Shown here piece after piece: positions 4,790 through 44,519 of a stretch of 59,818 nucleotides of DNA. The DNA is taken from assembly GCA_034660015.1 (NCBI GenBank), contig JAYEII010000142.1, forward strand, positions 1-59,818. The letters are read 5' to 3'. The notes under the pieces were generated by a model. The model had not been told where the DNA came from and did no database searches. It saw only the letters and a program-made list of their open reading frames with translations. This DNA comes from Methanobacteriota archaeon (GTDB lineage Archaea; Halobacteriota; Syntropharchaeia; Alkanophagales; Methanospirareceae). The translations under genes and the position numbers were made by a program. Numbering within the stretch: position 1 is the stretch's first letter; every line of letters starts with the position of its first letter.

Positions 4790-4790
4790 A

Positions 4791-6439: not shown

Positions 6440-6500
6440 TTAAATAGGAGGCAGTCGGATATACTTTATGCACAATAAGAAAGAAAAGGAGGAACGTAAA

Positions 6501-8042: not shown

Positions 8043-8081
8043 TTAAATAGAAGGCAGTTATCCTTTATGTACAATAAAAAA

Positions 8082-8407: not shown

Positions 8408-8486
8408 GACACAGATTAACGCAGATTAACACAGATGATAAAACTCAACAATGTTAAACTAAAATAAATCCGCGTAAATCCGTGTC
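8408..8486 (+). repeat. A-type hairpin element plus tail
   Basis: GACACAGATTAACGCAGATTAACACAGATGATAAAACTCAACAATGTTAAACTAAAATAAATCCGCGTAAATCCGTGTC. Confidence 0.9.
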
Positions 8487-8619
8487 TTAAATAGAAGGCA
8501 CTAAGTTATACTTTATGTACAATAAAAAGCAAATACAGATAGTTATTTTTCAGATATTGATAAATTATTTTTTTGCTATACATAACTATTTATGTCATAT
8601 TTAAGAGAATCATATTAAT

Positions 8620-12087: not shown

Positions 12088-12225
12088 GACACAGATTAAC
12101 GCAGATTAACACAAACCTTTCTTTCAAAAAGAAAGCTTTACCAAAGAAATTTGTTTTTCTTTTAGCACAGGTTTTCTTTTTTTGAAAAAGAAAAAGTGTT
12201 GCGTAAATCAGTGTAAATCCGTGTC
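12088..12225 (+). repeat. B-type (long) hairpin element plus tail
   Basis: GACACAGATTAACGCAGATTAACACAAACCTTTCTTTCAAAAAGAAAG...AAAAAGTGTTGCGTAAATCAGTGTAAATCCGTGTC. Confidence 0.9.
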
Positions 12226-12281
12226 TCAAATAGAAGGGGGTTATACTTTATATACAATGAAAAAGCAAAGGGGTGAACAAA

Positions 12282-12893: not shown

Positions 12894-12951
12894 ACACAGA
12901 TTAACACAGATGATAAGAATCAATATGGTTAAACTAAAATAAATCTGCGTC
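12893..12951 (+). repeat. A-type hairpin element, single-unit arms
   Basis: GACACAGATTAACACAGATGATAAGAATCAATATGGTTAAACTAAAATAAATCTGCGTC. Confidence 0.85.
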
Positions 12952-12982
12952 TTAAATAGAAGGAAGTTATACTTTGGGTACT
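12951..12982 (+). promoter_or_regulatory. conserved element tail with TATA-like CTTAAATAG; candidate promoter for a leaderless 12983 gene
   Basis: CTTAAATAGAAGGAAGTTATACTTTGGGTACT is followed by ATG. The centre of TTAAATA lies about 27 nt upstream of the ATG. Confidence 0.4.
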
Positions 12983-13744: not shown

Positions 13745-13872
13745 AACCACAGATTACACAGATTAACACAGATGAGGCACAGTCGAATTTTATAGTGAAA
13801 TTGCTAAATCCTTAAATTCCACCGCAGAGCAAGCACACAGAGAACTAAAATAAATCTGCGTAAATCAGTGTC
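13745..13872 (+). repeat. A-type variant whose left arm starts AACCACAGATTACACAGATTAACACAGATG, with inserted loop modules
   Basis: The loop carries the ATAGTGAAATTGCTAAATCC...CCACCGCAGAGCA module, also found at 22364-22425 and 57925-57965. The right arm is AAATCTGCGTAAATCAGTGTC. Confidence 0.8.
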
Positions 13873-13931
13873 TTAAATAGAAAGAGGATATACTTTATAT
13901 ACAAGGATAAAAAGAAATATAAAGTTATAAG

Positions 13932-14669
13932 ATGGCTAAAGCAAAGCAAAGGTATATGGAAATAGTAGAAGAATTCCCGATTGAGTTCCACAAGCCCCTG
14001 CTCCGGCTTGCAGATGCTATAATGGAGCGGATAAGGACGGAGTTCGCGGTCAGGCGAGAAGATTTTGACGAATTAAGAAGTGCGATTGCTGAGTTAGCAC
14101 AGGCGCAGAAGAGGACTGAGGAGCGTGTTGAGGAATTAGCACAGGCGCAGAAGAGGACTGAGGAGCGTGTTGAGGAATTAGCACAGGCGCAGAAGAGGAC
14201 TGAGGAGCGTGTTGAGGATTTATTCAATATTCAGAAAAGGTTTGAGAAGCATTTTGATATGCAAATTGGTGCCTTGGGTAGCAGAGGGGGTTTAAAGACC
14301 GAAGAGAGCTTTCGTGCTGCGGCAGAAGGTATTCTCGGCGAAGATTTTGGAATGCACGTAGAGCGATACCTGACTTATGACGAGGAGGGAGAGGTATTTG
14401 GGCGCCCTGATCAGGTTGAGATAGACATATTGATACGAGACGGTAAGATTACCGCCATTGAAATCAAATCTTCTATGAGCAAATCAGACGTCTATACCTT
14501 TGACAAGAAAGTTTCATTCTACGAGAAACGGCATCAGGTGAAGATAGACCGCAAACTCATCATTACTCCCATGCTGGACCCACGAGCTACCGAGCTGGTA
14601 AAGACCCTGGGAATGAAAGTTTACACTTCGTGTTATGATTGGGGTGACGAAGAACTAAAGTATCAATGA
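13932..14669 (+). CDS. coiled-coil plus PD-(D/E)XK-like nuclease-fold protein (DUF3782-like)
   Basis: N-terminal heptad repeats. The C-terminus has [10 protein letters not shown]...ITAIEIKSS (D...ExK). Confidence 0.6.
14094..14219 (+). repeat. perfect 42-nt tandem repeat x3 within the CDS ([14 protein letters not shown] x3)
   Basis: TTAGCACAGGCGCAGAAGAGGACTGAGGAGCGTGTTGAGGAA is repeated three times with no substitution until the last two bases. Confidence 0.95.
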
Positions 14670-14735
14670 AAAAGCTTTTAAAGAGATAGGTAGCTATACA
14701 TATACAAAAGCTTAAAAGATAGGAGGTATGATAAA

Positions 14736-14924
14736 ATGCCAAATGCAACGATAGACTGACCAAAAATTGAAGATGTAGAAATAAAAAGAGTGTTAGTCAA
14801 GGAAATTACGGATGCTCTTGAAAAAGCTTACAAGATTCCAAGAGAGGCGTATGTGGTGTTGATAAAGGAAAACTCGCCTGAGAATGTTGGTGTTGGCGGT
14901 AAGCTAATCATAGATAAATCATAA
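14736..14924 (+). pseudogene. 4-oxalocrotonate tautomerase family gene with an in-frame TGA at codon 8
   Basis: MPNATID*PKIEDVEIKRVLVKEITDALEKAYKIPREAYVVLIKENSPENVGVGGKLI. It has the N-terminal Met-Pro and the typical ~62-codon length. The TGA is at 14757-14759. Confidence 0.6.
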
Positions 14925-18040: not shown

Positions 18041-18215
18041 GACACAGATTAACGCAGATTAACACAGATGAAAAAAATCAACAATGTTAAAGAACAAGAA
18101 AATTTTTGATGATCGGACGCAGATGACCGCAGATAATCAGGATTTTAAATATAAGGCATTTGATTGATAATTTGAGGAAATAGTTTTCTGCGTAAATCCG
18201 CGTAAATCTGCGTCC
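18041..18215 (+). repeat. composite element: A-type left arm plus complete C-type hairpin (18115-18215) plus tail
   Basis: GACACAGATTAACGCAGATTAACACAGATG..., then GGACGCAGATGACCGCAGATAATCAGGATTTTAAA...TTCTGCGTAAATCCGCGTAAATCTGCGTCC. Confidence 0.85.
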
Positions 18216-18437
18216 TAAATAGGTAGAAGTTATACTGTATATACAAAAATAAATCCGTGTAATCTGTGGTTAATAAGATTAACAAAAATAGATAATTAAA
18301 TTTCAATTACTTGTAATTTTCTTTCAACTATTTAGCAATATTTTTGGGATTATAAAAAAGTTTTTAAGAGAAGTTAGCAATATTTTCACTAAGCCTTGTG
18401 TAAAAACCTGTGTAATCGGTGTAATCTGTGGTCGAAA

Positions 18438-19244: not shown

Positions 19245-19353
19245 GACACAGATTAACGCAGAGGCACTATCTAAAAATATAGTGATTTATCACCGCGGAG
19301 AGCGCAGAGTTTTAAAATCCTCTAAACTCGCTTAATCCGTGTTAATCCGCGTC
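19245..19353 (+). repeat. A-type hairpin element with an S-type loop module
   Basis: GACACAGATTAACGCAGAGGCACTATCTAAAAATATAGTGATTTATCACCGCGGAGAGCGCAGAGTTTTAAAA...TTAATCCGTGTTAATCCGCGTC. Confidence 0.8.
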
Positions 19354-19412
19354 TTAAATAGAAGGAAGTTATACTTTATGTTACGATAAATAAGAACTAA
19401 TTATATATAGTC

Positions 19413-22324: not shown

Positions 22325-22699
22325 GACACAGATTAACGCAGATTAACACAGATAAACACAGATAGTGAAATTGCTATATCCCCAAAATTCACCGCAGAGC
22401 ACACGGAGACCGCAAAGGCAAAACAAAAAAATAAATTGTTGACACAGATTAACGCAGATTAACACAGATGATAAAAATCAACAATATCAAACTTAAATAA
22501 GTCCGCGTAAATCAGTGTAAATCTGTGTCTTAAATAGAAGGAAGTTATACTTTATATACAACCAGAAAGCCTAAACAATGATTGGAACCGTCTTAAAACT
22601 CTGCGTACTCTGCGCTCTCCGCGGTGATAAATCACTTGATTTTTAGACTGTGCCCGTTCAACGTAAGTAAATCTGCGTAAATCAGTGTTAATCCGTGTC
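22325..22699 (+). repeat. nested mosaic of repeat modules (outer A-type arms enclosing a complete inner A-type element at 22441-22529 plus T- and S-type modules)
   Basis: Left arm at 22325-22360, T module at 22364-22425, complete element with tail at 22441-22563, reversed S module at 22588-22655, right arm at 22667-22699. Confidence 0.8.
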
Positions 22700-22747
22700 T
22701 TAAATAGAAGGTAGTTATACAGAACAATATTATATCATTATTGTACT

Positions 22748-24109
22748 ATGATAGAGATAATCAGAACAATCCTTGGTGAATGGAAAGGCAGAGAATTACC
22801 CGAAGTTATTGAACGAAGTGTAGATTTGCTGGATTATAGCCATATAGAACCATGTAAAATAATCGTAATCACCGGATTCAGGAGAACAGGAAAGACCTAT
22901 CTTGCTTATCATCTTATCAAAAGATTATTAGAAGCAGAAGGAAAGAGCCGGGAACAGGTGGTTTATGTTAACTTTGAAGACGAGCGGATACCATTAGAAA
23001 CAACATTTCTAACCACTCTGCTCCCTACGATAAAGAAGACACACACCGAGCAGTTGGAGTTCCTGTTCCTGGACGAAATCCAGAACATCCCGAATTGGAG
23101 CAGATGGCTACGGAGAGTTTATGATACAGAGAAAATACGATTTTTCGTCACCGGGTCATCCTCTAAGATGTCAAGCAGAGAAATCCCTACCGAGCTGCGA
23201 GGACGGTTTCTGGAGGTAAAAATATTCCCTTTAAGCTTCAGAGAGTTCCTCCAATTTAAAGATATAAATATCAATGAAGAAACAGTAGCGTACTCCGAAG
23301 ATGAAAAGGCAAAACTGATGGGTGCCCTGAGGGAGTACTTGGAATTTGGGGGCATGCCAGAGGTGGTCCTGGCAAGCGAAGGGGAAAAATCAGAGCTAAT
23401 TCATAGTTATTACAATACCGTTGTCCGGCGGGACATCATTGAGCGATTCAAGATAAGGAATGAGGAAAGTTTGAAAGCGTTACTAAGGCTGTTACTTAAT
23501 TCAACGAGCTATACCATCAGTAAGTTATACAACAACCTGAAGAGTTTGAATTATGAAGTAGGAAAAGGCACTATACAGAGCTATTTGAGCTATATCGAGG
23601 ATTCATATTTTATATACAGCCTTCCCCTGTTCTCATTTAAAATCAAGAATCAGTTGCAATACGCCCGGAAGGTATATTTTATTGACACCTCATTTCTAAA
23701 TCTATTGTCTGCACGATTCACAAAAAACAGCGGCAGGCTGTATGAAAATCTCGTTTTTATTGAATTAAAAAGAAGACAGGCAAACGACCCAAACCTGGAG
23801 ATATACTATTGGAGGTCTGCGCAGAAAGAGGAGGTTGATTTTGTGCTTAAGCACGGATTAAAAGTCGAGCAGCTAATTCAGGTCTGCTACGATATTAACG
23901 ATTATGACACGAAGAGGAGGGAGACAAAAGCGTTACTTAAAGCGAGCAAAGAGCTTAAATGCAATAACCTGTTTGTCATTACCGAGGATTATGACGCCTT
24001 TGAGGAGATAAAGAGAAAGCGAATAGTGTACATTCCATTGTGGAGATGGATTTTGCAAAACAAGATAAATTATAGACACAGATTAACACAGACAGATGAT
24101 AAGAATTAA
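22748..24109 (+). CDS. AAA+ ATPase with a DUF4143-type C-terminal domain
   Basis: Walker A GFRRTGKT, Walker B FLFLDEIQ, SSSKMSS and a C-terminal EVDFVL...QVCY region. The C-terminal 15 codons run through the repeat left arm. Confidence 0.85.
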   Translation: MIEIIRTILGEWKGRELPEVIERSVDLLDYSHIEPCKIIVITGFRRTGKTYLAYHLIKRLLEAEGKSREQVVYVNFEDERIPLETTFLTTLLPTIKKTHTEQLEFLFLDEIQNIPNWSRWLRRVYDTEKIRFFVTGSSSKMSSREIPTELRGRFLEVKIFPLSFREFLQFKDININEETVAYSEDEKAKLMGALREYLEFGGMPEVVLASEGEKSELIHSYYNTVVRRDIIERFKIRNEESLKALLRLLLNSTSYTISKLYNNLKSLNYEVGKGTIQSYLSYIEDSYFIYSLPLFSFKIKNQLQYARKVYFIDTSFLNLLSARFTKNSGRLYENLVFIELKRRQANDPNLEIYYWRSAQKEEVDFVLKHGLKVEQLIQVCYDINDYDTKRRETKALLKASKELKCNNLFVITEDYDAFEEIKRKRIVYIPLWRWILQNKINYRHRLTQTDDKN

Positions 24110-24137
24110 CACGGTTAAACTAAAATAAATCTGCGTC
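24075..24137 (+). repeat. A-type hairpin element (single-unit arms), overlapping the 3' end of the ATPase ORF
   Basis: GACACAGATTAACACAGACAGATGATAAGAATTAACACGGTTAAACTAAAATAAATCTGCGTC. Confidence 0.85.
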
Positions 24138-24168
24138 TAAAATAGAAGGAAGCTATGCTTTATATACA
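24137..24168 (+). promoter_or_regulatory. conserved element tail (CTAAAATAGAAGGAAGCTATGCTTTATATACA); candidate promoter for a leaderless 24169 gene
   Basis: The centre of the TATA-like AAAATAG lies about 27 nt upstream of ATG 24169. There is no room for a Shine-Dalgarno sequence. Confidence 0.4.
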
Positions 24169-26256
24169 ATGACAAAAGTAAGAATTTTAATCGTGGAAGA
24201 CGAAGCCATCGTAGCCGAAGACCTGGCGATGGCGATTACCGATATTGGTTACGAAGTGGTGGGGCGTGCTGGCAGCGCAGAGGAAGCCGTAAAAAAGGCT
24301 GTTGAACTCAAGCCGGATTTGATATTGATGGATATTGTTCTTAGAGGGCGAGAAAACGGCATAGGCACTTCTCATGAGATAAAAGAGAAGATGGATATTC
24401 CCATTATATTTCTTACCGCATTTTCGGATAGAGAGTTATTAGATAGAGCCAAAAGCGTCGAGCCGTATGCTTACATTGTTAAACCGTTCCAGGAGCGGCA
24501 GCTTTTCGCATCCATAGAAATGGCTCTTCACAAAAACAGGATGGAGAAGAAATTAAAAGAGAGTGAGAAATTTAGTTCCAGCCTGCTGAGCAATTCGCCC
24601 AATCCCATAATAGTTGTCAATCCAGATACTTCAGTAAGATATGTGAATCCTGCTATGGAAAAGCTAACCGACTTTTCTGCTGCCGAGCTCGTTGGCAAAA
24701 AAGCGCCATATCCCTGGTGGACGGAAGAAACGCTGCCGCAGACCAGTAAGGACCTGAAAGAAGCTATGCAGAAGGGGGTGACGCAACTTGAGGAGCTTTT
24801 TCAGAAGAAGAACGGGGAGCGTTTCTGGGCTGAGATAACTTCTACACCCGTGAAAAGCAATGGCGAGTTCAAGTATTACCTGTCAAACTGGGTTGACATC
24901 ACCGAGCGCAAGCGTGCGGAGGCGAAGATAAGGAAATTAAGTTCCGCGGTTGAGCAGGCGATTGACGGTATAGCGATGTATGACTTAGAACAAAAACTGA
25001 GCTATGTGAACGATGCTTTTGCACTGATGCACGGTTATTCACCGGAAGAGATGATAGGAATGAAAGTAGAGAATCTACATGATGAGGAACGGATGAATGA
25101 ATACAGGAGTGGTATGAACCAGATAATGACACAGGGTTCATGGGCAGGAGAAACATGGCATCTCAAAAAAGACGGCACACTTTTTCCCGCATTCATGAGC
25201 GTTAGTTTATTGAAAGGCGATGATGGAAACCACCCGGGGATCCTGGCAGTTGCAAGAGACATCACCAAGCAGAAGCGAGCGGAGGTGAGACTGCAGGAAA
25301 GAGAAGCACAATATCGCGGCATCTTTAATTCTGCTACCGATTCATTACTTATCTTCGATTATTACGGTAATATTGAAGAGGTAAATCCTCAAGCATGTGA
25401 AATGTATGGTTATCTTTATGAGGAGTTGATAACACTATCGGGCAAGGATATCGTTCATCCCGATTATTATCATATTTTTGAACAATTCAAACGAGACGTT
25501 CAGACCACCGGTGAATTTCACGCGGAATCGGTAGACGTCCGTAAGGATGGCACTCCATTTAATATCGAACTCGGAGGAGCGGGATTTAATTATAAGGGGG
25601 AACCACATTTGTTGGCTATCGTAAGAGACATCACCGAGCGGAAGAAGGCGGAGGAAGAAGTAAAGAGATCCCATGAGTTCCTTGCGACTATCATTGATAA
25701 CATTCCTGATATAGTCACCATTAAGGACCTGCAGTACCGCCTCGTATTGGTCAATCAGGCATATTGTAACATAACAGGGCATACGAAGGAGGAAGTAATT
25801 GGGAAAAAAGCCTACTGGGAAAAAGATAAGGAAATATTTCAAACAGGGAAAGGGTTGGACCTCCCTGAACAGTCTTATACTGACCTTGAAAGTATGTGCC
25901 ATTATATATCTGTTAAAAAAGCGCCATTAACAGACGAATCAGGAAAACCAACTCATGTTCTGACAATAAGTCGTGACTTCACCAAGCGTAAGCATGCGGA
26001 GGAGAAGGCGAAAGAGGCTTATAGACTAAGAGAACACTTTCTAAAAGAAACGTCACATAGAATTATCACCCCGGTGACTATCATCGGAGGAAACGCAGAA
26101 TTACTGCTTGATTCCCGCAATCTCGGCGAAGCCCAAAAAGCGAGAATCAGGACTATACGAGAGAAGAACGATGAAGTCCAGAAACTGGTGATGGACGCGC
26201 TGGCGGGAAGGTATTTAAAGGAAGAGGAAGGTGAGGAACAAGAAGATAAATTATAG
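24169..26256 (+). CDS. REC-PAS(x4)-DHp protein: receiver plus PAS sensor with a HisKA-like phosphoacceptor region but no ATPase domain
   Basis: REC (ILIVEDE...LMDIVL...KPF), four PAS modules with DITERK linkers, and H-box LKETSHRIITPVTIIGGNAELL. The ORF stops at the TAG of the next repeat element. Confidence 0.8.
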   Translation: MTKVRILIVEDEAIVAEDLAMAITDIGYEVVGRAGSAEEAVKKAVELKPDLILMDIVLRGRENGIGTSHEIKEKMDIPIIFLTAFSDRELLDRAKSVEPYAYIVKPFQERQLFASIEMALHKNRMEKKLKESEKFSSSLLSNSPNPIIVVNPDTSVRYVNPAMEKLTDFSAAELVGKKAPYPWWTEETLPQTSKDLKEAMQKGVTQLEELFQKKNGERFWAEITSTPVKSNGEFKYYLSNWVDITERKRAEAKIRKLSSAVEQAIDGIAMYDLEQKLSYVNDAFALMHGYSPEEMIGMKVENLHDEERMNEYRSGMNQIMTQGSWAGETWHLKKDGTLFPAFMSVSLLKGDDGNHPGILAVARDITKQKRAEVRLQEREAQYRGIFNSATDSLLIFDYYGNIEEVNPQACEMYGYLYEELITLSGKDIVHPDYYHIFEQFKRDVQTTGEFHAESVDVRKDGTPFNIELGGAGFNYKGEPHLLAIVRDITERKKAEEEVKRSHEFLATIIDNIPDIVTIKDLQYRLVLVNQAYCNITGHTKEEVIGKKAYWEKDKEIFQTGKGLDLPEQSYTDLESMCHYISVKKAPLTDESGKPTHVLTISRDFTKRKHAEEKAKEAYRLREHFLKETSHRIITPVTIIGGNAELLLDSRNLGEAQKARIRTIREKNDEVQKLVMDALAGRYLKEEEGEEQEDKL

Positions 26257-26397
26257 ACACGGATTAACGCAGATTAACACAAACCTTTCTTTCAAAAAGA
26301 AAGTTAACTTTACCAAAGAAATTTGTTTTTCTTTTAGCACAGGTTTTCTTTTTTTGAAAAAGAAAAAGTGTTGTGTAAATCAGTGTAAATCAGTGTC
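26256..26397 (+). repeat. B-type (long) hairpin element
   Basis: GACACGGATTAACGCAGATTAACACAAACCTTTCTTTCAAAAAGAAAG...AAAAAGTGTTGTGTAAATCAGTGTAAATCAGTGTC. Confidence 0.9.
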
Positions 26398-26434
26398 TTA
26401 AATAGAAGGAAGCTATACTGTATATACAATAAAA
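26397..26434 (+). promoter_or_regulatory. conserved element tail (CTTAAATAGAAGGAAGCTATACTGTATATACAATAAAA); candidate promoter
   Basis: ATG 26435 lies 38 nt after the first C, which predicts a leader of about 6 nt. Confidence 0.35.
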
Positions 26435-27364: not shown

Positions 27365-27369
27365 TGTTT

Positions 27370-27442
27370 AACCACCAGATTACACAGATTTACACGGATT
27401 TATTTATTTTATCATCTGTGTTAATCTGCGTTAATCTGTGTC
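27370..27442 (-). repeat. A-type hairpin element in minus orientation, immediately upstream of the minus-strand receiver gene
   Basis: The minus strand reads GACACAGATTAACGCAGATTAACACAGATGATAAAATAAATAAATCCGTGTAAATCTGTGTAATCTGGTGGTT, then AAACA, then the ATG. Confidence 0.9.
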
Positions 27443-30558: not shown

Positions 30559-30736
30559 GACACTGATTAACGCAGATTAACACAAACCTTTCTTTAAACC
30601 TTTTAAGAAAAGGTTTATCAAAAACGCTTCGCGAAAAGAAAGTTAACTTTACCAAAGAAATTTGTTTTTCTTTTAGCACAGGTTTTCTTTTTTTGAAAAA
30701 GAAAAAGTGTTGCGTAAATCAGTGTAAATCTGTGTC
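30559..30736 (+). repeat. B-type (long) hairpin element with an extra inserted hairpin
   Basis: GACACTGATTAACGCAGATTAACACAAACCTTTCTTTAAACCTTTTAAGAAAAGGTTT...AAAAAGTGTTGCGTAAATCAGTGTAAATCTGTGTC. Confidence 0.85.
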
Positions 30737-30797: not shown

Positions 30798-32120
30798 ATG
30801 GAGAAAAAAGAATTGCTAGAGATTTTGCACGACTGGAATTTTTGGAAAAAAGAATTAGATACCGGCAAAGAAAGGAGAGCATACCTTGAGAAATGTTTGA
30901 GTTTTCTCGAAACAAATGTCGTTGCTGCGATTATTGGCGTCAGGAGAGCAGGTAAATCATATCTTATGAGACAGGCAATAAAAAAATTGATTGAAAAAGG
31001 AGTGAAAAGGGAAAACATATTGATGGTGAATTTTGAAGATGGAAGATTTGCAGAGTTATATCCAAAATTGCTCGATGAGATTTATGAAACTTATCTTGAA
31101 TTTTTAAACCCAGAAGAAAAACCATTTATTTTCCTTGATGAGATTCATAATGTACCAAAATGGGAAAGAGGGGTAAGAACAATGCAGGAGCTAGGAAAAG
31201 CAAAAATAATTGTTTCTGGCTCTTCTTCTAAACTTCTTGCGGGTGAACTGGCAACCGTCTTAACAGGAAGGCATCTTGATGTTTTTGTTTTCCCTCTCAG
31301 CTTTGAAGAATTTCTTTATTTTAAAGGTCTGGAGATAAAAGATGAGCTTGATTTAATAGCAAGGAGAATAGAAATAAGGAGGGCTTTTAATGAATATTTT
31401 GAATTTGGTGGCTTCCCGGAAGTTATCCTGAGTGAGGAGAAAAAACAATTACTCCTAACCTATTTTGATGATATACTTACGAAAGACATAGAGAAGAGAT
31501 ATAGGTTAAAGAAAGGCGAAAAATTAAGGGCTTTGGCACGATTTTATTTGACAAATATCTCCTTTCCCATCACTTTTAATTCATTAAAAAAGTCGCTGGA
31601 TACAACCACGAATACGATAGAAAAATACTCTTCATATCTGGAAGAAGCAGGCATGATTTTCTTTGTAAAACGCTTTTCTTTTAAAGTCAAAGAGCAGGAG
31701 AAGGCGGCAAGAAAAATTTACGCAATTGACGTTGGTTTGGCTAATGCCATCGGATTCAGGTTCAGTTCAAATCTTGGCAGAGTTGCGGAAAACATTGTGG
31801 CTATTGAATTAATGAAGAAGAGCAAATTGAACCCAAACATGGAAGTTTATTACTGGCGAGACCCTACGGGAAAGGAAGTTGATTTTATTATCAAGGAAGG
31901 ATTAAAAGTAAAACAATTAATACAAGTTTGTTGGGATATTGGAGACATGGGTACCAAAAAGAGAGAATTAAAGAGCTTGCAGAAAGCGATGGAGGAGTTC
32001 AAGTTAAAGCAGGGGTTTGTAATAACAGAAGATTATGAAGGAGAAGAGAGGTTGGATGACAAGACCATCAAGTTCATGCCCCTATCCAGGTGGCTATTGT
32101 TTGTGATTTGGTTCTTATGA
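30798..32120 (+). CDS. AAA+ ATPase with a DUF4143-type C-terminal domain
   Basis: Walker A GVRRAGKSY, Walker B FIFLDEIH, GSSSKLL and a C-terminal EVDFII...QVCW. Confidence 0.85.
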   Translation: MEKKELLEILHDWNFWKKELDTGKERRAYLEKCLSFLETNVVAAIIGVRRAGKSYLMRQAIKKLIEKGVKRENILMVNFEDGRFAELYPKLLDEIYETYLEFLNPEEKPFIFLDEIHNVPKWERGVRTMQELGKAKIIVSGSSSKLLAGELATVLTGRHLDVFVFPLSFEEFLYFKGLEIKDELDLIARRIEIRRAFNEYFEFGGFPEVILSEEKKQLLLTYFDDILTKDIEKRYRLKKGEKLRALARFYLTNISFPITFNSLKKSLDTTTNTIEKYSSYLEEAGMIFFVKRFSFKVKEQEKAARKIYAIDVGLANAIGFRFSSNLGRVAENIVAIELMKKSKLNPNMEVYYWRDPTGKEVDFIIKEGLKVKQLIQVCWDIGDMGTKKRELKSLQKAMEEFKLKQGFVITEDYEGEERLDDKTIKFMPLSRWLLFVIWFL

Positions 32121-32276
32121 AGTGATTTGTCACTCACCGCGGAGAGCGCCGAGTACGCAGAGTTTTAAGACTGTTTCAATCTATGCTTAGTTTTTTCTAT
32201 CGCAATTTCACTGAAAAATTCGACAGTGCCGTTGATTTTTATCATCTGTCCGTGTTAATCTGCGTTAATCTGTGTC
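32121..32276 (-). repeat. reversed mosaic: S- and T-type modules plus an A-type left arm, in minus orientation
   Basis: CACCGCGGAGAGCGCCGAGTACGCAGAGTTTTAAGAC...ATCATCTGTCCGTGTTAATCTGCGTTAATCTGTGTC. It is one of the few copies oriented against both flanking genes. Confidence 0.75.
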
Positions 32277-32456: not shown

Positions 32457-34568
32457 ATGAAATTGGGAAACATGAAAGTTGGACCGAAATTGTTTGCGGG
32501 CTTTGGCATCGTGCTGGTATTGACGGCAGCACTGGGAATAGTTGCATTTTTGCAAATAGGTACCATGTCCGACCAAAGCGACATGATGGGAAGCGCGGCA
32601 GACCTGAAGGCGGAAATGAAAACGGTCAGGCAGCAGGAAAAGAACTATATAATGAGGGAAGACCAGGCGAGCATTGACAAGAACAACGAAGCCCTGGCAA
32701 AGGTAAAGAGCCTGGCAACTGAGCTTGCAGGAATGGTGCAAACCGTGGAAAGCAAAGCGGCAGTAGAGGAAGTCAAGACAACGATTCCGAAGTATGAGAG
32801 TGCCTTTGATGAGCTTCAGGCACTTACAGACACCAAAGAGGAGCAAATAGCAGCCGTCAGAGGCAATGCACGCGATTTAGAGAGTATAATAAGAGGCAGT
32901 TCCGCCGACCAGGCGACCAAAGATGCGATGATAATCAATATGTTAACTATCAGGCGAGCGAGAAAGGACTACATAATAAAAGGGGACGAGAAATATGTTA
33001 CACAAGTATCTGAAGAGCTAAACAACTTGAAGGCAGATGCCGATGCAGCTGCGATTACGGAAGCGGAAAAGAGTGCAATCAAAACCGGAGCAGATAAATC
33101 TCTGAAGCTTTTCTCGGCATACGTGAGCACCACGAAAGACGTTGCTGAGATCCAGTCAACCGACGGTCCGCTGGTGCAGTCAGGACGTGGGATAGATGCA
33201 GCGGCAACTACTCTGCTTGGGAATGCAGAGGCAGACTCAGCAAAGGCAGCGTCAACAGCCACTATGTTTGTGATAGCATTTATTATCGCAGCGATCGCAG
33301 TGGGCGTAGGAATCGCAGTTGTCGTTACCAGATCAATCGTCGGACCAGTTACCGAAGTGGTAAGAGTGATGAAGAATTTTGCGGCTGGTAAACTCGGCAC
33401 GAGAGCGGAGACAAAAGCATCAGGCGAACTCCTCGAAATGACCAACACCTTGAACCGGTTCGGAGACGATTTGCAGGGTATTATCAAAGACATCGGTAAA
33501 GTGACGGGGAACATGGCAGCAGGGGACTTGAACGCAGATTTCACCGCAGAGACACCCGGGGAATTCAATGAGATAAGGGACAACATCAACCAGGCAAACG
33601 CGAGTTTATCGGATTTGATCGGTGAGCTGGGAGGCGCGGTGGAGAACGTCGCATCGGTAGGCAAAGAATCTGCTTCCTCTGTCGAGCAGGTGAATTCCGG
33701 TATGCAGCAGATTTCTTCAGCATCGCAGCAAATAGCAAAAGGCGCTCAGGAAACTTCGGGCACCGTAAACGAATCGGCAAAGGAGATTAAGGATACGAAC
33801 GCAGTGTTACAACAGGTGCAGTCGCATGCAGAAGAATCCAACAAGTTCGCCGTGGAGAGTGCGGAAAACGCAAAAGAGATGAATGAAGCAGCTAAGAAAT
33901 CAGCAGAAGGAATGAAGGAGATACAGGAAGCTATCGGTGATACTGTGGAGGTAATTAAGAACCTGGGCAGTTCATTAGAGCAAGTAGGAAAGACCACAGA
34001 GATGATAGAAAGCATTGCCGACCAGACGAATCTATTAGCGTTGAACGCGGCGATAGAAGCCGCACGTGCCGGAGAACATGGACGTGGTTTTGCGGTCGTT
34101 GCCGAAGAAGTGCGAAAACTGGCAGAGAACTCTAGGCAGTCCACCGCAGAAATTGATACAATGATAAGTAGCTTACAAGAGGAGATGGAAAAAGTCATAA
34201 AAGCTACGGACAGCGTCACGCAGCGTGCCGACGTAGGTCGTGAGGACCTCGACAAAGTGGTGGAAAGTGTAGAAAAAACCGCAGGCATGATCAGGGACAT
34301 CAAGGGCAGGATGGGGCAAATCACCGAGGGTGCGAGAAAGGGTGCGGAAAGCATAGACAAAGTATCAAAGGGCGTGGACGAGATTGCAAGCTCTTCCGAG
34401 GAGAGCGCATCATCATCAGAAGAAAGCTCTTCCGCAGTAGAGGAGCAAACGGCAGCCATAGAACAGCTCAGCGGCGGCATGCAGAAACTTTCGGAAATTG
34501 CTGACCAGGCAACGGAGATGATTGGGAAATTCAAATTGAATGAGAACGGGGGCAAGAAACAGGAATAA
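32457..34568 (+). CDS. transmembrane methyl-accepting chemotaxis protein (4-helix-bundle sensor, HAMP, MCP signalling domain)
   Basis: Two TM helices, HAMP regions, the conserved hairpin-tip region [39 protein letters not shown], and a [20 protein letters not shown] tail. Confidence 0.92.
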
Positions 34569-34572
34569 AGGA

Positions 34573-34682
34573 GGGACTAGGGACTAGGGACTAGGCAATA
34601 GGGGTAAGGGTTTAGTCCCTTGTCCCTATTGGCTATTGGCTACGTGGCTATGTGGCTATTCGCTACTTGGCTATTCGCTATT
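34573..34682. repeat. G-type hairpin: (GGGACTA)n/(GGCAATA) arm against a (CTATTGG/CTATTCG/CTATGTGG)n arm
   Basis: GGGACTAGGGACTAGGGACTAGGCAATAGGGGTAAGGGTTTAGTCCCTTGTCCCTATTGGCTATTGGCTACGTGGCTATGTGGCTATTCGC..., followed directly by TTTTAGGAGGAGGTGAG (RBS) and cheW. Confidence 0.85.
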
Positions 34683-34705
34683 TTAGGAGGAGGTGAGAAA
34701 TAAAA

Positions 34706-35242
34706 ATGGAAGAAAAAATGGGAATGGGAATGGGAATGGAAAAAGAGGAAGTAAAAGAAAAAGCAGAAGTAGAAGGAAGTGGGGTAAACCAGCAGCAATT
34801 AGTGGTCTTCAAGCTCGGTGGCGAGGATTTCGGCGTTGACATCAATCAAGTGCGCGAGATAATAAGAAAAGGGGCTGCTACGGTGGTTCCAAACGCTCCT
34901 GGGTACGTTAAAGGTGTGATAAATCTCAGGGGGGTGATAACAACGATTATAGACCTGAGAAGAAAGTTAGGGTTGGCAGAGAAGGAAGCGGGTGATGAGC
35001 AACAAGAGCGCGTAATCGTGGTTGAGGTGAACAAAAATACCGTCGGGATGGCTGTTGACGCTGTGACAGAGGTAACCTATCTCTCAGAAAGCGACATAGA
35101 CGAAGTGCCGGCAATGGTAAAAGAGAATATAGGGACGGAGTATCTAAGGGGAGTAGGAAAACTGCCGGATAAACTGCTCATCCTGATAGACCTGAAGCGC
35201 GTGCTAAACGGAGAGGAAATGAATGTGCTGCAACCCGCATAG
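34706..35242 (+). CDS. cheW: chemotaxis coupling protein CheW
   Basis: CheW domain (LVVFKLGGEDFGVDINQVREI...VKGVINLRG...IDL). About 93% identical to the 45071..45604 product. Confidence 0.92.
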   Translation: MEEKMGMGMGMEKEEVKEKAEVEGSGVNQQQLVVFKLGGEDFGVDINQVREIIRKGAATVVPNAPGYVKGVINLRGVITTIIDLRRKLGLAEKEAGDEQQERVIVVEVNKNTVGMAVDAVTEVTYLSESDIDEVPAMVKENIGTEYLRGVGKLPDKLLILIDLKRVLNGEEMNVLQPA

Positions 35243-35317
35243 CAACATGAGAAATCACATCTCAAATCTATAAAAAGTTTGGAATTTGGGATTTTCTGAT
35301 AGGAGTTGAGAATAAAA

Positions 35318-35590
35318 ATGGAAGAAGAAAAAGAAAAAACATGGGCCTGGCTAATGCCGAGCGGGAAGATATATAAAGTGGTGACAAACCCGGGGGAGGG
35401 AACGATAGACGTCTATGATGAAGACAGAAAGTTGGTGAGTAAAGAAGAGAAACTGAGCGAAGAGGCGATAAGCCTCCTTGAGAAAATCTTTCTCGAAACC
35501 GCAGCATCAGAAGTTGGAGGGAAAGAAAAAGGAATGGAAAAGGGAGAAGGAACTGAAAACGAGCTTGGGATTGCGATGTACATACGATAA
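35318..35590 (+). CDS. small conserved hypothetical protein (paralog of 8082..8360)
   Basis: MEEEKEKTWAWLMPSGKIYKVVTNPGEGTIDVYDEDRKLV...IFLET...MYIR. Confidence 0.65.
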   Translation: MEEEKEKTWAWLMPSGKIYKVVTNPGEGTIDVYDEDRKLVSKEEKLSEEAISLLEKIFLETAASEVGGKEKGMEKGEGTENELGIAMYIR

Positions 35591-35629
35591 GAAGTAACTG
35601 CTCAATCTTCAGTTGACTTATAGGTTAGG

Positions 35630-35710
35630 TTCCAAATGGGTGCATTACGCTACAGGATTGCCTTACCTCAATTCTGCATGTTTTCCTCCTTAGTAATGCA
35701 CCCTTTGGAA
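35630..35710. repeat. unique 18-bp-stem hairpin (TTCCAAATGGGTGCATTAC ... GTAATGCACCCTTTGGAA) with a ~44-nt loop
   Basis: The arms are complementary with a single-base bulge. The 8-nt word TGCTCAAT occurs on both sides (35599-35606 and 35721-35728). Confidence 0.6.
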
Positions 35711-35767
35711 TTTTTGTAATTGCTCAATATCTAAGGGGTATAAAATTCTAAGCACTAAACTCTAAAT

Positions 35768-35810
35768 AAGCCCCTACTGGGCTTGCGGGGTTACCGGGGC
35801 AGAGCCCCTG
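35768..35810 (+). repeat. H-type GC-rich double-hairpin module (AAGCCCCTACTGGGCTTGCGGGGTTACCGGGGCAGAGCCCCTG)
   Basis: Related copies at 35886-35927, 45731-45772 and 54917-54957. Confidence 0.7.
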
Positions 35811-35885
35811 TCTAAACAAACTCCAATATCTAAACTCAAAATTCAAACAAACCTTTCTTTTGGGATTTTGGTATTGTTTAGGATT

Positions 35886-35927
35886 AAACCCTTTCAGGGC
35901 TTGCGGGGACGTGGGCAGAGCCCACGA
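35886..35927 (+). repeat. H-type GC-rich double-hairpin module (AAACCCTTTCAGGGCTTGCGGGGACGTGGGCAGAGCCCACG)
   Basis: CGTGGGC-AGA-GCCCACG forms a perfect 7-bp stem. It abuts a reversed single-unit A-arm (GTTAATCTGTGTC). Confidence 0.7.
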
Positions 35928-35980
35928 GCGTTAATCTGTGTCAACAATATATTTACTATTTTCTTGTGGAATCACCCTTT

Positions 35981-36229
35981 TCATTCCTCCAAATACGCCA
36001 TACCTGAACTGATATTGAAGCAAATCGTGAATCTTTCGAGCAAACGCTTGAAACCAAGAATCAAAGGAACTCTATCGCCAATCGCACAAAACGCATAGAA
36101 TTCAACCTCTTTCGTACGATTCAAATCCTCATCAAAAAGCATTCCTTTAATAACGCTCACTTTCACTGGCAGACTGCATTCCTTCTTGGCAACAATCCCA
36201 CGAATCGAATGTTTCGCCTTCTCTTCCAC
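35981..36229 (-). CDS. hypothetical protein; the C-terminus resembles the end of retropepsin-like aspartyl protease domains (weak)
   Basis: AIGDRVPLILGFKRLLERFTICFNISSGMAYLE. The reading frame stays open upstream as far as the TAG that ends the 36308..36532 ORF, so the true start is unclear. Confidence 0.35.
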   Translation of the reverse strand: MEEKAKHSIRGIVAKKECSLPVKVSVIKGMLFDEDLNRTKEVEFYAFCAIGDRVPLILGFKRLLERFTICFNISSGMAYLEE

Positions 36230-36307
36230 TTGAATCCCCTCCCAGATATATTTTGGAATTTTAAATCCAATTCCGGGTCTATCAGTTTCTTTATCCGAAT
36301 TCGCAAC

Positions 36308-36532
36308 CTAATAGACATTTGCTCCACTTTCTACGAAAATTACTGGAATTTCCTCTCTATTCTTCCCAGTAAGCTTTGATGCTTTCTCTTTCACATATTT
36401 TAAGTCATCACCTGCCACAATGACCTCCCTGTTCATTATTGCAACCCATAGATCTCTGAACTTCAGTTGCAGGCTTTTATAATTGTCGAGACCCCACTTC
36501 ATATCTTCCATGAAAGTCTTTTGGATTTCCAT
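36308..36532 (-). CDS. small DUF5678-like protein
   Basis: KFRDLWVAIMNREVIVAGDDLKYVKEKASKLTGKNREEIPVIFVE fits the ~70-aa archaeal family pattern. Confidence 0.55.
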   Translation of the reverse strand: MEIQKTFMEDMKWGLDNYKSLQLKFRDLWVAIMNREVIVAGDDLKYVKEKASKLTGKNREEIPVIFVESGANVY

Positions 36533-36649
36533 TTTCCCTCACTCTAATATTATCTAATTGCATTCCTTATATAAATAGATTCATTCATCAATGCTATATT
36601 TAACTCCCTCTATATGTTCTCGAATAATTTTTACAGCTTCGAGTGTTTT

Positions 36650-36689
36650 CATCTGCGTTAATCTGTGTTAATCTGCGTTAATCTGTGTC
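36650..36689 (-). repeat. A-type left arm (three units) in minus orientation, at the 3' end of the decayed ATPase gene
   Basis: The minus strand reads TAG-ACACAGATTAACGCAGATTAACACAGATTAACGCAGATG. The TAG is the stop codon of the ORF. Confidence 0.85.
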
Positions 36690-37345
36690 TATAATTTATT
36701 TTCTATTTTCTTGTCATGCCCTAACAGCCACTTCCAGAGCGGCACAAAACGTATTTTTTTACCTTTTATTTCCTCCTCTTCCTCATAGTCCCATGTGATA
36801 ACGAGCAAATCAGTGCATTTTAACTCTTTGCTTGCTTTTATCAATTTACCAATATTCTCCGAGAACCTGAATCCCCGCACATAATAGAATCCCGTATCTA
36901 TTATATAGACTTTTCTTACAGACCGGATTTGCTTAAAAGCAGAGTATCCAAACTTTTTTTTTCCAATTTCTCTATCTCTCTTATCCCAAATCTCCTTACT
37001 ATGTCTTTTGCAGTTATATCCTCGAAATAATTCGTTAAGAGCGCTCTTTTTCTTGTGGGTGAATCAGAGAGCACCACTTCGGGGAATCCACCATATTTCA
37101 AATAGATGTCAAACAGGCTAAGTATTTTTATTCTGTTTTTAAATTGTTAACGTACAAATAAGCGATGGATGATTTCCCTGCTCTTCTCACGCCAGATAAA
37201 ACAAGAGCTACTTTGGCACCAAATAAACTTTTCATTCTGGTTAGATATGCGGGTCTATCAATCAGTTTTTCATCGAAATTCCCCCAGAAGTTTCAATCTA
37301 CTAATATTTCCAATATCTCTCTTTCGTTCATATTAAATATATTTG
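36689..37345 (-). pseudogene. decayed DUF4143-type AAA ATPase gene (fragments in several frames, internal deletions)
   Basis: C-terminal fragment KASKELKCTDLLVITWDYEEEEEIKGKKIRFVPLWKWLL, middle fragment GGFPEVVLSD...YFEDITAKDIVRRF, and an N-terminal fragment with a Walker A remnant read antisense to 37165..37350. Confidence 0.75.
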
Positions 37346-37434
37346 CATAGAAATACTTAAAGTTTATCGGTCAAATGTAATAAAAACTTACCGATGTATT
37401 TTCACTTTCATCTCCATAGTATATAAGATAACAA

Positions 37435-37520
37435 GACACTGATGGATTTTTTCTTTTTTTGTTGGACTGGGCTAACGGCATTGCTCTTTTTATCTGCGTT
37501 AATCAGTGTTAATCTGTGTC
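37435..37520 (-). repeat. A-type element (degenerate right arm) in minus orientation, upstream of the decayed ATPase gene
   Basis: The minus strand reads GACACAGATTAACACTGATTAACGCAGAT...CCGTTAGCCCAGTCCAACAAAAAAAGAAAAAATCCATCAGTGTC. Confidence 0.75.
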
Positions 37521-37530
37521 TATAAAATTT

Positions 37531-37603
37531 AATTTTTATTTCAAATATCTTCAATAAAATTACAAATAACAGATAAAAAATTTTATCCCTACGAAAGGTT
37601 TTT
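37531..37603 (+). promoter_or_regulatory. conserved ~73-bp upstream block shared with 41082-41157; contains the inverted repeat GATAAAA-AA-TTTTATC
   Basis: AATTTTTATTTCAAATATCTTCAATAAAATTACAAATAACAGATAAAAAATTTTATCCCTACGAAAGGTTTTT is about 90% identical to the block upstream of the poly-HAMP MCP. Confidence 0.5.
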
Positions 37604-37652
37604 ATCCACTATTCAACTGTCAGAATTAATAAGCGCTATTCAAATACAATTC

Positions 37653-39980: not shown

Positions 39981-40044
39981 GATAGCTAAGTATAGAGTGG
40001 TATATAAAGATTTGGAGGAAAAATATGGTAAGGAGGAAAGGCAG

Positions 40045-40434
40045 ATGAAGAAAAAGGTTATGATAGTGGACGACGAGTACCCTATCCGGTTTATTGTAAG
40101 AGAAATTTTTGAACCTGAAGGGTTTGAAGTGGTTACTGCCGGTAGTGGAAGAGAATGCCTTGAAGAGCTGGAAAAAGGATTCAAGGGCGTGATACTCATG
40201 GACATCATGATGCCGCAGATGGATGGATGGGATACAATAAGAGCGATAGTTGATAGAGGATTTATCGAAGGGAATATAATTGCTATGCTCACGGCAAAAG
40301 ACGTGCCAGACCAAAAAATGGAGGGGCTGCAAGAATATGTGATAGATTATATAACAAAACTATTTGAGCCCGATGAACTCGTAGCTACCGTTGAAGAATA
40401 TTTCTCATGCCTAAATCTAAACACAAAAGAATAA
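40045..40434 (+). CDS. single-domain response regulator (receiver)
   Basis: The RBS AAGGAGGA precedes ATG 40045. VMIVDDE...ILMDIMMPQMDG...LTAK...ITK. Confidence 0.85.
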   Translation: MKKKVMIVDDEYPIRFIVREIFEPEGFEVVTAGSGRECLEELEKGFKGVILMDIMMPQMDGWDTIRAIVDRGFIEGNIIAMLTAKDVPDQKMEGLQEYVIDYITKLFEPDELVATVEEYFSCLNLNTKE

Positions 40435-40449
40435 AGAGGGGTAATAACA

Positions 40450-41022
40450 ATGCAGACAAAAAACACAGTTGTAATAATAGGTGCCTCCACCGGTGGATTT
40501 AAGATAGTGAGGAAAATATTTTCTGGTTTACCCGTGCTGAATGCAGGTATAATAATAGTTCAACACATGCTCTGGAGCGTCAATGGGGCATTTAAAGAAA
40601 AATTGAACGGAAACGCAGGGATGGAAGTAAAAATAGCTGACGATGGAGATGGTATCGAAGCAGGGAAGGCATATATAGCTCCAAGCGGGCTTCATCTACG
40701 ACTAAAAAATAATACAAAAATACGTTTATTCGACGATGGGAAAGTAAACGCCGTCCGTCCGTCAATTGACGTAACAATGAAATCTCTTAAAAGCGGACCC
40801 GAAGGCGGGATTATAGGTGTAATTCTCACGGGTATGGGGAAAGACGGAGTAGAGGGTATAAGTCATATTAAGAGCATCGGAGGAATTACAATCGCTCAAG
40901 ATAGAGACACAAGTGCAATTTACGGGATGCCAAAGGCAGCCGTTGAAACAGGAGACGTTGATTTTGCTCTAACACCAGAAGAAATAAGCGATAAACTAAT
41001 TGAAGTGTGTGGCGTGGCATAA
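40450..41022 (+). CDS. stand-alone CheB-type methylesterase catalytic domain (no receiver domain)
   Basis: The catalytic triad contexts are intact: GASTGG (Ser), VQHM (His) and GMGKDG (Asp). It is about 190 aa, whereas the full-length CheB at 47332..48426 is 364 aa. Confidence 0.85.
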   Translation: MQTKNTVVIIGASTGGFKIVRKIFSGLPVLNAGIIIVQHMLWSVNGAFKEKLNGNAGMEVKIADDGDGIEAGKAYIAPSGLHLRLKNNTKIRLFDDGKVNAVRPSIDVTMKSLKSGPEGGIIGVILTGMGKDGVEGISHIKSIGGITIAQDRDTSAIYGMPKAAVETGDVDFALTPEEISDKLIEVCGVA

Positions 41023-41081
41023 TGGAAAAATATATCCACATTTTATTGAGCACGTCCATCTCAACTTCACCTTAATAACCC

Positions 41082-41157
41082 AATTTTTATTTCAATTATC
41101 TGCAATAAAATTACAAATAGTGGATAATAAATTTTATCCTTACGAAAGGTTTTTTAA
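41082..41157 (+). promoter_or_regulatory. second copy of the conserved upstream block (see 37531-37603)
   Basis: AATTTTTATTTCAATTATCTGCAATAAAATTACAAATAGTGGATAATAAATTTTATCCTTACGAAAGGTTTTTT. Confidence 0.5.
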
Positions 41158-41219
41158 GTAACTACTGAAACATCATTACGTAGGTAAGGCAAAAAATAAA
41201 ACCAAAAAGAGGAGGAAAT

Positions 41220-44515: not shown

Positions 44516-44519
44516 AAGA

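Follow-up and report, generated by a model that had tools for sequence, protein, structure and literature searches.

Does a repeat that ends flush against a start codon also supply the start of transcription? The question is raised by position 24137-24171 of the window analysed here, a 59,818-nucleotide (nt) stretch of DNA (contig JAYEII010000142.1), where the conserved tail of a hairpin-like repeat runs into the ATG of a gene at 24169. An earlier note on this DNA had proposed that the tail is spaced like a TATA box for a leaderless start. Our answer is that the 35-nt tail is probably the right-end module of an abundant, modular intergenic repeat which inserts en bloc in anaerobic methanotrophic archaea of group 1 (ANME-1), and that its sequence probably provides a complete outward-facing core promoter. 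What was observed directly is the anatomy of the repeat, its abundance and phylogenetic spread, the orientation and spacing statistics of its copies, and its insertion polymorphism; each is given with the copies from which it comes.

The focal element occupies 24062-24168 (+). Its left boundary (AGATAAATTATA, 24062-24074), placed from a conservation profile of 144 left ends, immediately precedes GACAC. In the family this boundary is A-rich (consensus AAAAATAAATTAT(A/T)) and contains stop codons in several frames; of 58 upstream genes, 12 stop at a TAA that lies 6 nt ahead of GACAC, and 7 at a TAG or TGA that overlaps GAC. The left arm (GACACAGATTAACACAGACAGAT, 24075-24097), made of 10-nt units CAGATTAACR, is near-invariant across copies. 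It is followed by a loop of the short type (GATAAGAATTAACACGGTTAAACTAAAATA, 24098-24127); loops of other copies are different modules, some with T-runs. The right arm is reduced to a remnant (AATCTGCGTC, 24128-24137), where other copies carry one to three units of GYGTWAATCN, and the two arms pair imperfectly, with fixed mismatches. The focal hairpin is weak (-13.6 kcal/mol, z = -2.0 against shuffles). Offsets in the tail are counted from the C of the GTC at its start, here 24137: CTAAAATAG covers 24137-24145 and the ATG (24169-24171) lies at +32. The stretch 24135-24171 reads GTC-TAAAATAG-AAGGAAG-CTATGC-TTTATATA-CA-ATG. The proposed TATA box is TAAAATAG (24138-24145; consensus TTAAATAG, offsets 1-8), chosen for the invariance of its AAATAG and for its spacing. 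A conserved spacer (24146-24158, 1.4-1.9 bits) then combines the purine block AAGGAAG (24146-24152) with CTATGC (consensus GTTATAC). TTTATATA (24159-24166, offsets 22-29) and CA (24167-24168, offsets 30-31) form the right terminus of the repeat, as judged from the limit of conservation and from the cheB junctions described below.

The downstream gene (24169-26256, +) encodes a receiver-PAS-HisKA protein whose receiver domain begins at residue 6, in agreement with an ATG at +32. No Shine-Dalgarno (SD) sequence fits upstream of this ATG, AAGGAAG lying 15 nt away, too distant to serve as one; from this arrangement the mRNA of the gene is predicted to be leaderless. The protein is without an ATPase domain and stops at a TAG in the left boundary of the next element. 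On the other side, the open reading frame (ORF) of an AAA_14/DUF4143 protein (22748-24109) extends 12 codons into the left arm and loop of the focal element and ends within the loop. Repeat insertions appear to have reshaped the 3' ends of genes.

The promoter proposal presupposes an archaeal host. By their Pfam domains, the window proteins include CofC and many two-component proteins, with an archaellum operon and two che clusters among their genes, and parts of the window are syntenic with ANME-1-type metagenome-assembled genomes (MAGs) at 94-98% identity. An exact-match scan for GTCTTAAATAGAAGGNAGTTATAC, with one genome per species, found the tail in at least 99 stretches from about 25 ANME-1-type MAGs, all labelled ANME-1, Methanophagales, Syntrophoarchaeum or a vague methanogen class. 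The organism is archaeal and ANME-1/Methanophagales-like; given this protein content, the synteny and the confinement of the tail to such MAGs, the archaeal premise stands. In the window, GTCTTAAATAGAAGG with at most two mismatches occurs 13 times, on the + strand only, against a mean of 0.20 and a maximum of 2 in shuffled sequences. Looser variants raise the total to 16 tails, and about 27 arm clusters are present in 59.8 kb. The density of the element is about 1 per 2.4 kb.

A repeat search of the window returned many families built from the same units of 10 nt, with CAGATTAACR in left arms and GYGTWAATCN in right arms. Right arms end in two ways: with the promoter-like tail A (GTCTTAAATAGAAGGNAGTTATACTTTATATACAAT), in every window copy of which AAATAG is unchanged, or with GTCTTAAAAAA..., the latter where another arm comes next or a gene converges. 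Element length has a strong mode, at 86 nt counted from GACAC up to the tail and a further 34 nt for the tail itself, with other classes 10 nt shorter or longer, which indicates a master form and gain or loss of units. The element is short and non-coding with imperfect inverted-repeat arms, as are miniature inverted-repeat transposable elements (MITEs). Rfam and tRNA scans of the window assigned the repeat to no family, the sole Rfam match being a group II intron fragment. A scan of IMG/VR for tail and arm returned no tail and three unrelated arm-like matches, and nothing in it points to a viral origin. Among 30 window proteins scanned with Pfam there was no transposase, in a search that was not made genome-wide. 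In the searchable literature on ANME-1 repeats, promoters and leaderless genes we found no prior description of this repeat or of ANME-1 promoters. Two other identities were considered for the hairpin and dropped: a C/D-box small RNA, for which D boxes are missing, and an integron attC site, whose core sites GATTAAC/GTTAATC resemble only partly, the element moreover preceding core housekeeping genes.

Evidence on where transcription would start comes from about 130 tail copies, namely those of the window and of loci L002-L100. Conservation is high through offset about 33, then A-rich to about 40, then falls to background; values at positions 0-21 are inflated by the method used to find the loci, and positions 22-33 are unaffected. 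First plausible start codons form a single sharp peak at exactly +32 (22 of 117, including a duplicate contig). Between +32 and +63 this offset holds 21 of the 65 starts, for a mean of 2.0 per offset (Poisson P = 8e-15), and fewer than 10 starts precede +32, most of them with an in-frame downstream alternative. N-termini are canonical in several of the proteins that start at +32: Asd (MKKIKVGVLGATG, in four MAGs), a P-loop ATPase (MKILICGKGGCGKS, in three), and MoaA-like and PorA-like proteins. SD-like pentamers, sought at -18 to -4 from the start codon, are missing at +32 (0 of 21) and at +33 to +45 (0 of 17, hence 0 of 38 together), are found in 2 of 18 genes at +46 to +55, and reach 8 of 14 at +56 to +75. 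Where present, SDs lie at offsets 41-60, several of them at 41-52, and the transcript must therefore begin upstream of about +41. Genes for tRNA-Met (L067, L075, L077) and tRNA-Glu (L057) start at +48 and +52, which argues for a role of the tail in transcription rather than translation. A start at about +31 would satisfy the conservation limit, the start-codon peak, the SDs and the tRNAs alike; a start at about +53 would satisfy none of them.

The tail also has the geometry of a published archaeal core promoter, apart from the TFB recognition element (BRE) considered below. In archaeal primary transcriptomes, the TATA box is centred about 27 nt upstream of the start, a promoter-proximal element (PPE) that is rich in A/T lies near -10, and a pyrimidine and a purine occupy -1 and +1 (PMC5316973). 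A promoter box is likewise found about 26 nt before leaderless starts (PMC6028130), and in a related methanogen about 16% of transcripts lack a leader (PMC5378194). With a start at offset 32, TTAAATAG would span -31 to -24, and with a start at offset 31, -30 to -23; its centre lies 26.5-27.5 nt before offsets 31-32, where conservation ends, where 21 start codons abut and where we infer the start to be. TTTATATA would then cover about -10 to -2 as the A/T-rich -10 element, and the consensus C30/A31 provides the pyrimidine and purine at -1 and +1. Initiation by RNA polymerase at the tail, and the exact start site, are thus deduced from sequence.

The mechanism we propose is as follows. The TATA-binding protein (TBP) and TFB would bind TTAAATAG at offsets 1-8, and the A/T-rich TTTATATA at offsets 22-29 would be the promoter-proximal, initially melted region. 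Transcription would begin at the A after the C, offsets 31-32, the last base of the repeat. A gene with its ATG flush at +32 would then yield a leaderless mRNA, genes at +37 to about +55 would have short A-rich leaders without SD, and genes at about +56 or more would have a leader carrying their own SD. That the tail is a functional promoter driven by TTAAATAG and starting at the last base of the repeat is, in our judgement, reasonably likely. The peak at +32, the SD distribution, the tRNA genes and the divergent genes described next all agree with the spacing that had been proposed, and support it as far as sequence can.

Orientations were counted with an RNY-filtered gene caller, a guard against spurious antisense ORFs. 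Of 112 copies of tail A that could be scored, 90 point towards a gene start, 62 of them at a distance of no more than 70 nt; of 68 left ends of the same repeat, 20 do so. For 21 tails that have a start no further than 80 nt away, the upstream neighbour is encoded on the opposite strand, and read-through from such a neighbour is impossible. The asd gene, divergently placed in four MAGs, is one example; in L055 and L096 it has its ATG at +32 and upstream opposite-strand genes of 202-256 amino acids. L096 also has other promoter-like sequences, TTTAAATA and ATAAATAG, just upstream of the left boundary of the element; their use would require transcription through the hairpin. L072 is again divergent with an ATG at +32. 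In L049, three right-arm units and a tail stand alone between two divergent genes, the ATG is at +47, and no promoter-like box other than the tail was seen upstream of the gene. L097 and cofC in the window are further cases. These divergently placed genes sit at +32 to +52, and on sequence grounds the tail is their best-placed promoter candidate. In L019 (about 2810-2970), two back-to-back modules of right arm plus tail form a palindrome whose tails face two divergent genes, the only case among the loci sampled; it looks like a bidirectional promoter built from the repeat. For 25% of tails no left arm is present within 260 nt, so that arm plus tail exists independently of the hairpin. Upstream of asd, the flank (GCATAAAAACCTTTAAATA...) joins right arm and tail directly in L021, whereas a left arm and loop intervene in L096, L055 and L039, so that hairpin halves can be gained or lost independently.

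Mobility of the repeat, also suggested by the earlier note, is borne out at the cheY-cheB junction. A metagenome search with CheB provided ten close relatives (L101-L110) for comparison. In L105-L107 (CheB 80%), the cheY TAG is followed by one base and then by cheB (ATGACGAT...), a coupled operon junction. The element is absent from L103 and L104 (85-86%), which have a 20-nt spacer, and from L108 (76%) and L110 (72%), which have longer ones. In the window and in L101 (95%), a 137-nt element separates the TAG from AATGACGATGG. In L102 (91%), the element lies about 9 nt further right, the ancestral ATGACGA is left of it, and cheB restarts at an ATG inside a tail of the TTTATG variant. The element is thus present in the window, L101 and L102 and absent from L103-L110, a presence/absence polymorphism. 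The right junction is at offset 30-31 in both insertions; insertion is therefore of the whole unit at once, ending on the right where transcription is predicted to start. Each insertion is flanked by imperfect direct repeats, which are degenerate and of unequal length: roughly 8-10 nt (AGAGATGAAC / AGAGGAATGAC) for the window and roughly 13 nt for L102. Public contigs were sought for three window genes: one short contig was found for the focal gene, with repeats at both ends, and none for the other two.

The cheB copy itself (47299-47331, +), which forms part of the 137-nt insertion, is the weakest example of a ready-made promoter. The element has been inserted in the che operon as had been supposed, but its tail matches the consensus in the TATA part only. 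The distal half diverges, and the length from C to ATG (31 nt) is kept: the ATG at 47332 lies at +31 from the first C of GTCC and at +30 from the second. The SD-like GAAGAGGAA stands just before the ATGs of cheB, so the earlier view that three such ATGs have no room for a ribosome-binding site does not hold here.

The best-surviving alternative, which we nevertheless consider unlikely, is a passive repeat, comparable to MITEs or to repetitive extragenic palindromic (REP) sequences, without promoter activity. The tail would be kept as a mobilised end or because copies are young, genes would be expressed by read-through and translated in an SD-independent or coupled manner, and the TATA likeness would reflect A/T-rich ends. 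En-bloc insertion suits this explanation, as does a right terminus that is simply the end of conservation, and the left end is likewise A/T-rich and TATA-like when read outward. Most short-loop copies are without a T-run, which makes read-through plausible. Several further observations weigh against promoter activity of the tail, or at least against a fixed start at +31/+32. About 17 of the 112 tails (about 15%) face nothing useful, for example the 3' end of a convergent gene or a short T-run. The orientation bias has a possible alternative cause, since a reversed element puts its T-runs, which are archaeal terminators, on the sense strand. Orthologous tail copies are 88% identical and third codon positions 91%, so that the tail is conserved no better than synonymous sites, between orthologues too close to show selection. 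Insertions into very short (1-nt) stop-start spacers could account for part of the peak at +32, since they leave the ATG directly at the end of the repeat; stop codons, like start codons, can come to lie flush in this way. The ATG at +32 is moreover partly built into the repeat consensus (TACAATGAAAAA): it is present in 35 copies, 15 of which open no ORF of at least 50 codons and would make 5'-terminal short ORFs. The signal at +32 is the pile-up at one offset, not the fraction opening long ORFs, which is 57% for ATGs at +32 vs 49% at other offsets and does not differ significantly. A PGM-like gene in L062 seems to need an ATG at +25, upstream of the predicted start site. An ATG at +25 also seems to be needed by cheB in L102, with the SD-like GAGAGGGG 9 nt upstream, and in L101 an ACG replaces the first ATG of cheB. 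These start codons misfit a start at +31, and read-through translation of cheB, with its SD-like motif, is plausible.

The promoter sequence also has weaknesses of its own. Where a BRE would lie (offsets about -6 to 0) stands the repeat arm GTGTC/GCGTC, which is not A/purine-rich, and the first two TATA positions vary (TT, CT, TC, TA). BREs are weakly conserved in many archaea, so the mismatch lowers the promoter claim without excluding an archaeal promoter. A positional TATA profile upstream of 328 element-free genes had no sharp peak, crude gene and start calling making this profile uninformative as to the general promoter consensus of ANME-1 and how frequent its leaderless genes are. What a passive repeat accommodates poorly is the set of genes at +32 to +52 with divergent neighbours, which cannot be read through, together with the tRNA genes, the want of SD motifs until the leader is long enough for one, and the excess of gene starts in front of tails over left ends. 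The persistence of cheB, although translational coupling was lost after insertion behind cheY, also speaks against it.

A second possibility is that TTTATATA (offsets 22-29) is the functional TATA box, with a start at about +50 to +55, TTAAATAG being merely part of the repeat arm. TTTATATA is a textbook methanogen box A, half-tails keeping only GTTATACTTTATATACAA precede leadered genes (e.g. L038, L017), and such a start is compatible with genes at +75 or more and with the gene at 13932 (+60). It would fall inside or after the 21 genes at +32 and all those at +37 to +52, and downstream of SDs at 41-52 (window genes 12282 and 6501; L094, L093, L054). A start at about +53 would also fall inside the tRNAs, which excludes TTTATATA as the box of these genes. 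The sequence itself tolerates TTTATG, TTTACA and insertion variants, with about 0.5-0.7 bits at offsets 22 and 27. We therefore find it very unlikely as the general box, as the earlier note had already judged for several genes; it may act as a secondary promoter for distant genes.

The arms were also examined at the RNA level. Most copies fold moderately better than their shuffled sequences (z = -1.7 to -4.7). The left arm hardly varies among 19 canonical copies, A.A (19 of 19) and A.C (17 of 19) mismatches are fixed, the N of ATCNGTG varies freely, and no covariation between the arms was detected. Such a pattern resembles a selected RNA helix less than it does phased protein-binding sites, or a strand-specific DNA hairpin whose bulges are obligatory. 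Our preferred guess is that the arms serve as an upstream-activating or insulating protein array. A hairpin acting as an mRNA processing or stability signal (compare REP and Correia elements, which RNases cut), with the A/U-rich tail as 5' untranslated or translation-initiation region and AAGGAAG as a weak SD, is most improbable. In its favour, folding exceeds chance in most copies, AAGGAAG is one mismatch from AGGAGG, and TTTATG variants have an ATG 8-9 nt after it which L102 cheB appears to use. Against it, 15 nt separate the block from an ATG at +32, an ATG at +25 shares its frame with a long ORF in 6 of 16 copies, a proportion close to chance, the arms keep mismatches rather than covary, a quarter of tails have no left arm at all, and tRNA genes and divergent contexts misfit a translational role.

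The promoter reading of the tail can be followed copy by copy in the window, where all tails are on the + strand. The nine distances from tail to ATG previously reported were re-measured, and all are right to within 1 nt. The tail at 12949-12982 places the ATG of a metallo-beta-lactamase-fold gene (12983) at +32. That at 26395-26430 precedes a receiver protein (ATG 26435, +38) with its receiver domain from residue 5. The copy at 8040-8075 is of the TTTATG variant, with the ATG at 8082 (+40) and an in-frame ATG at +25. Before cofC (ATG 54086, +42; upstream gene on the opposite strand), the copy at 54042-54085 retains the first half only and continues with GTAATCTGTGAAATCTGTGGTTATAAA; the CofC domain begins at residue 1, and Pfam domain starts thus back the start codons assigned to the 24169, 26435 and 54086 proteins. 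Three genes further from the tail had been credited with their own SD. This is correct for cheR (tail 12223-12258, ATG 12282 at +57, SD AGGGGTGA at offsets 44-51) and for the gene at 6501 (tail 6437-6476 with a 4-nt insertion, ATG at +62, SD AAGGAGGA, and an in-frame ATG inside the tail at +29), but not for the gene at 13932 (tail 13870-13905, +60), before which no clear SD is recognisable. A partial copy (22697-22720) lies before the ATG at 22748 (+49). Other copies are more distant from genes: 7424-7452 (GTCCTAAATAGG variant, truncated; next gene about 190 nt away), 8484-8523 (next ATG, 8620, at +134), 18212-18247 (about 180 nt) and 19351-19386 (next gene, 19688, about 335 nt). After the copy at 22527-22562 comes no gene but a conserved non-coding hairpin module with TTTTT at its end. 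A tail-like module without arms (GCTTTTAAAGAGATAGGTAGCTATACATATACAAAAGC, about 14676-14710) is indeed present, as had been noticed, before a tautomerase-like ORF (14736-14830, MPNATID*PKIEDVEIKRVLVKEITDALEKA), which has an in-frame TGA at 14757 and is probably a pseudogene.

Other repeats accompany the element. A second conserved repeat, ...TCTTAAAACTCTGCGTACTCTGCGCTCTCCGCGGTGATAAATCACTNGATTTTTAGACTGTGCC, is found at 22560-22650 (+), with reverse-complement copies near 19270-19340 and 32120-32190, and in 29 copies across the loci (e.g. L024, L053, L038, L072). It is often paired with an upstream TTCACCGCAGAGCACACGGAGA to give a hairpin ending in a T5 run, and in several genomes it follows tail A directly, no gene intervening. 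A terminator module is one possible role, a small RNA driven by the tail another. One class of loops has small palindromes of its own and long T-runs (TTTGTTTTTCTTTT, GGTTTTCTTTTTTTG; 12110-12200, 26290-26380, 30590-30710 and 2040-2100), which look like archaeal intrinsic terminators; the common short loop has no such palindromes or T-runs. A variant arm, AACCACAGATTACACAGATTAACACAGA, stands alone at 13740, 17980 and 19615 (+), and its reverse complement GTGTAATCTGTGGTTA(T/A)AAA directly precedes the starts of cofC (54062-54085, start at 54086) and of a minus-strand receiver gene (27365-27385, start at 27364).

Beyond the element, 585-6341 and 32457-52446 hold the operon of an archaellum (with flagellin, FlaH-, FlaI- and FlaJ-like genes) and two clusters of chemotaxis genes, and three paralogous AAA_14/DUF4143 ATPase genes (22748, 27711, 30798) are interleaved with sensor kinases. 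Tandem repeats occur inside ORFs (28-143, 3458-3522, 14094-14222 and 41387-42850): CAGGATA x16.6, GGTAAT x10.8 within the FlaI-like gene, and units of 42 nt (x3.1) and, in a protein of 956 amino acids, of 273 nt (x5.4). Intergenic heptamer arrays (CTATTGG / GGCAATA) lie upstream of che genes at 34626-34682, 44520-44568 and 44940-44985, and also upstream of cheY in L105-L107, relatives without the hairpin element. The group II intron match of Rfam (domains D1-D4, 40.4 bits, 58671-58781, -) lies within about 760 nt that the syntenic MAG loci L042 and L050 do not have.

ANME-1 archaea account for much of marine anaerobic methane oxidation and are uncultured, and to our knowledge their promoters and mRNA architecture are almost undescribed. 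If the tail is a promoter, one repeat family would set the transcription start of about a quarter of the window genes, and of housekeeping genes and tRNAs in relatives; it would also offer a ready-made, sequence-defined ANME-1 promoter for heterologous expression and genetics. Breaks of ANME-1 assemblies at gene boundaries would be explained by the repeats; the sole public contig with the focal gene ends in them on both sides. A broader and more tentative possibility, which we hold as conceivable rather than probable, is that a domesticated modular mobile cassette supplies the whole gene boundary: stop codons, optional T-run terminators, protein sites phased by 10 bp, a core promoter, and a start at its last base. 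Were this so, insertion would turn coupled genes inside operons into independently transcribed leaderless genes, one repeat family would have rewired transcription units across the lineage, and a common regulator could control hundreds of genes.

A mobile element spreading TATA-type promoters tuned to leaderless translation would be without archaeal precedent in the searchable literature. The nearest analogues of such an archaeal cassette are the outward promoters of bacterial Correia elements and insertion sequences (IS) and the mosaics of REP sequences known as bacterial interspersed mosaic elements (BIME). Archaeal MITEs (Sulfolobus SM1-SM4 and those of haloarchaea) derive from identifiable IS elements, and we know of no report of one carrying a positioned core promoter. 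The ANME-1 element resembles them in being non-autonomous, shorter than 300 bp, with inverted ends, an archaeal host and insertion polymorphism; it differs in its far higher density and in that no parent IS was found among the window proteins scanned. REPs measure 20-40 bp, usually lie 3' of genes, are not promoters, have GTAG/CGTC at the base of the palindrome and are associated with a RAYT (a Y1 transposase). Like REP/BIME, the element is a very abundant, extragenic, imperfect and mosaic palindrome between co-directional genes (see also PMC3733652). Unlike REPs, its arms are arrays of 10-nt units ending in GACAC/GTGTC instead of GTAG/CGTC. Neisseria Correia elements and bacterial IS ends are small, interspersed and strain-polymorphic, with inverted-repeat ends and outward promoters that use sigma-70 -35/-10 signals, and the RNA of the element can form a hairpin. 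The ANME-1 element is likewise small, non-coding, interspersed, gene-adjacent and polymorphic, with a promoter-like end. It is distinguished from Correia elements by its archaeal host, its directionality (two different ends), its mosaic structure and its candidate TATA-type promoter with a start on the last base, and the TA duplication and IHF site of Correia elements are not seen in it. The archaeal core promoter (BRE-TATA-PPE-initiator; Thermococcus, Haloferax, Sulfolobus, Methanolobus) differs from the tail, which is a near-identical cassette repeated on a hairpin element, has a GTGTC arm in the BRE position and has a predicted start. What the tail shares with it is an 8-bp A/T-rich box about 27 nt before that start and, with archaeal leaderless promoters, an A/T-rich block near -10, a pyrimidine and a purine at -1 and +1, and an SD-less ATG at the predicted start (PMC5316973, PMC6028130, PMC5378194).

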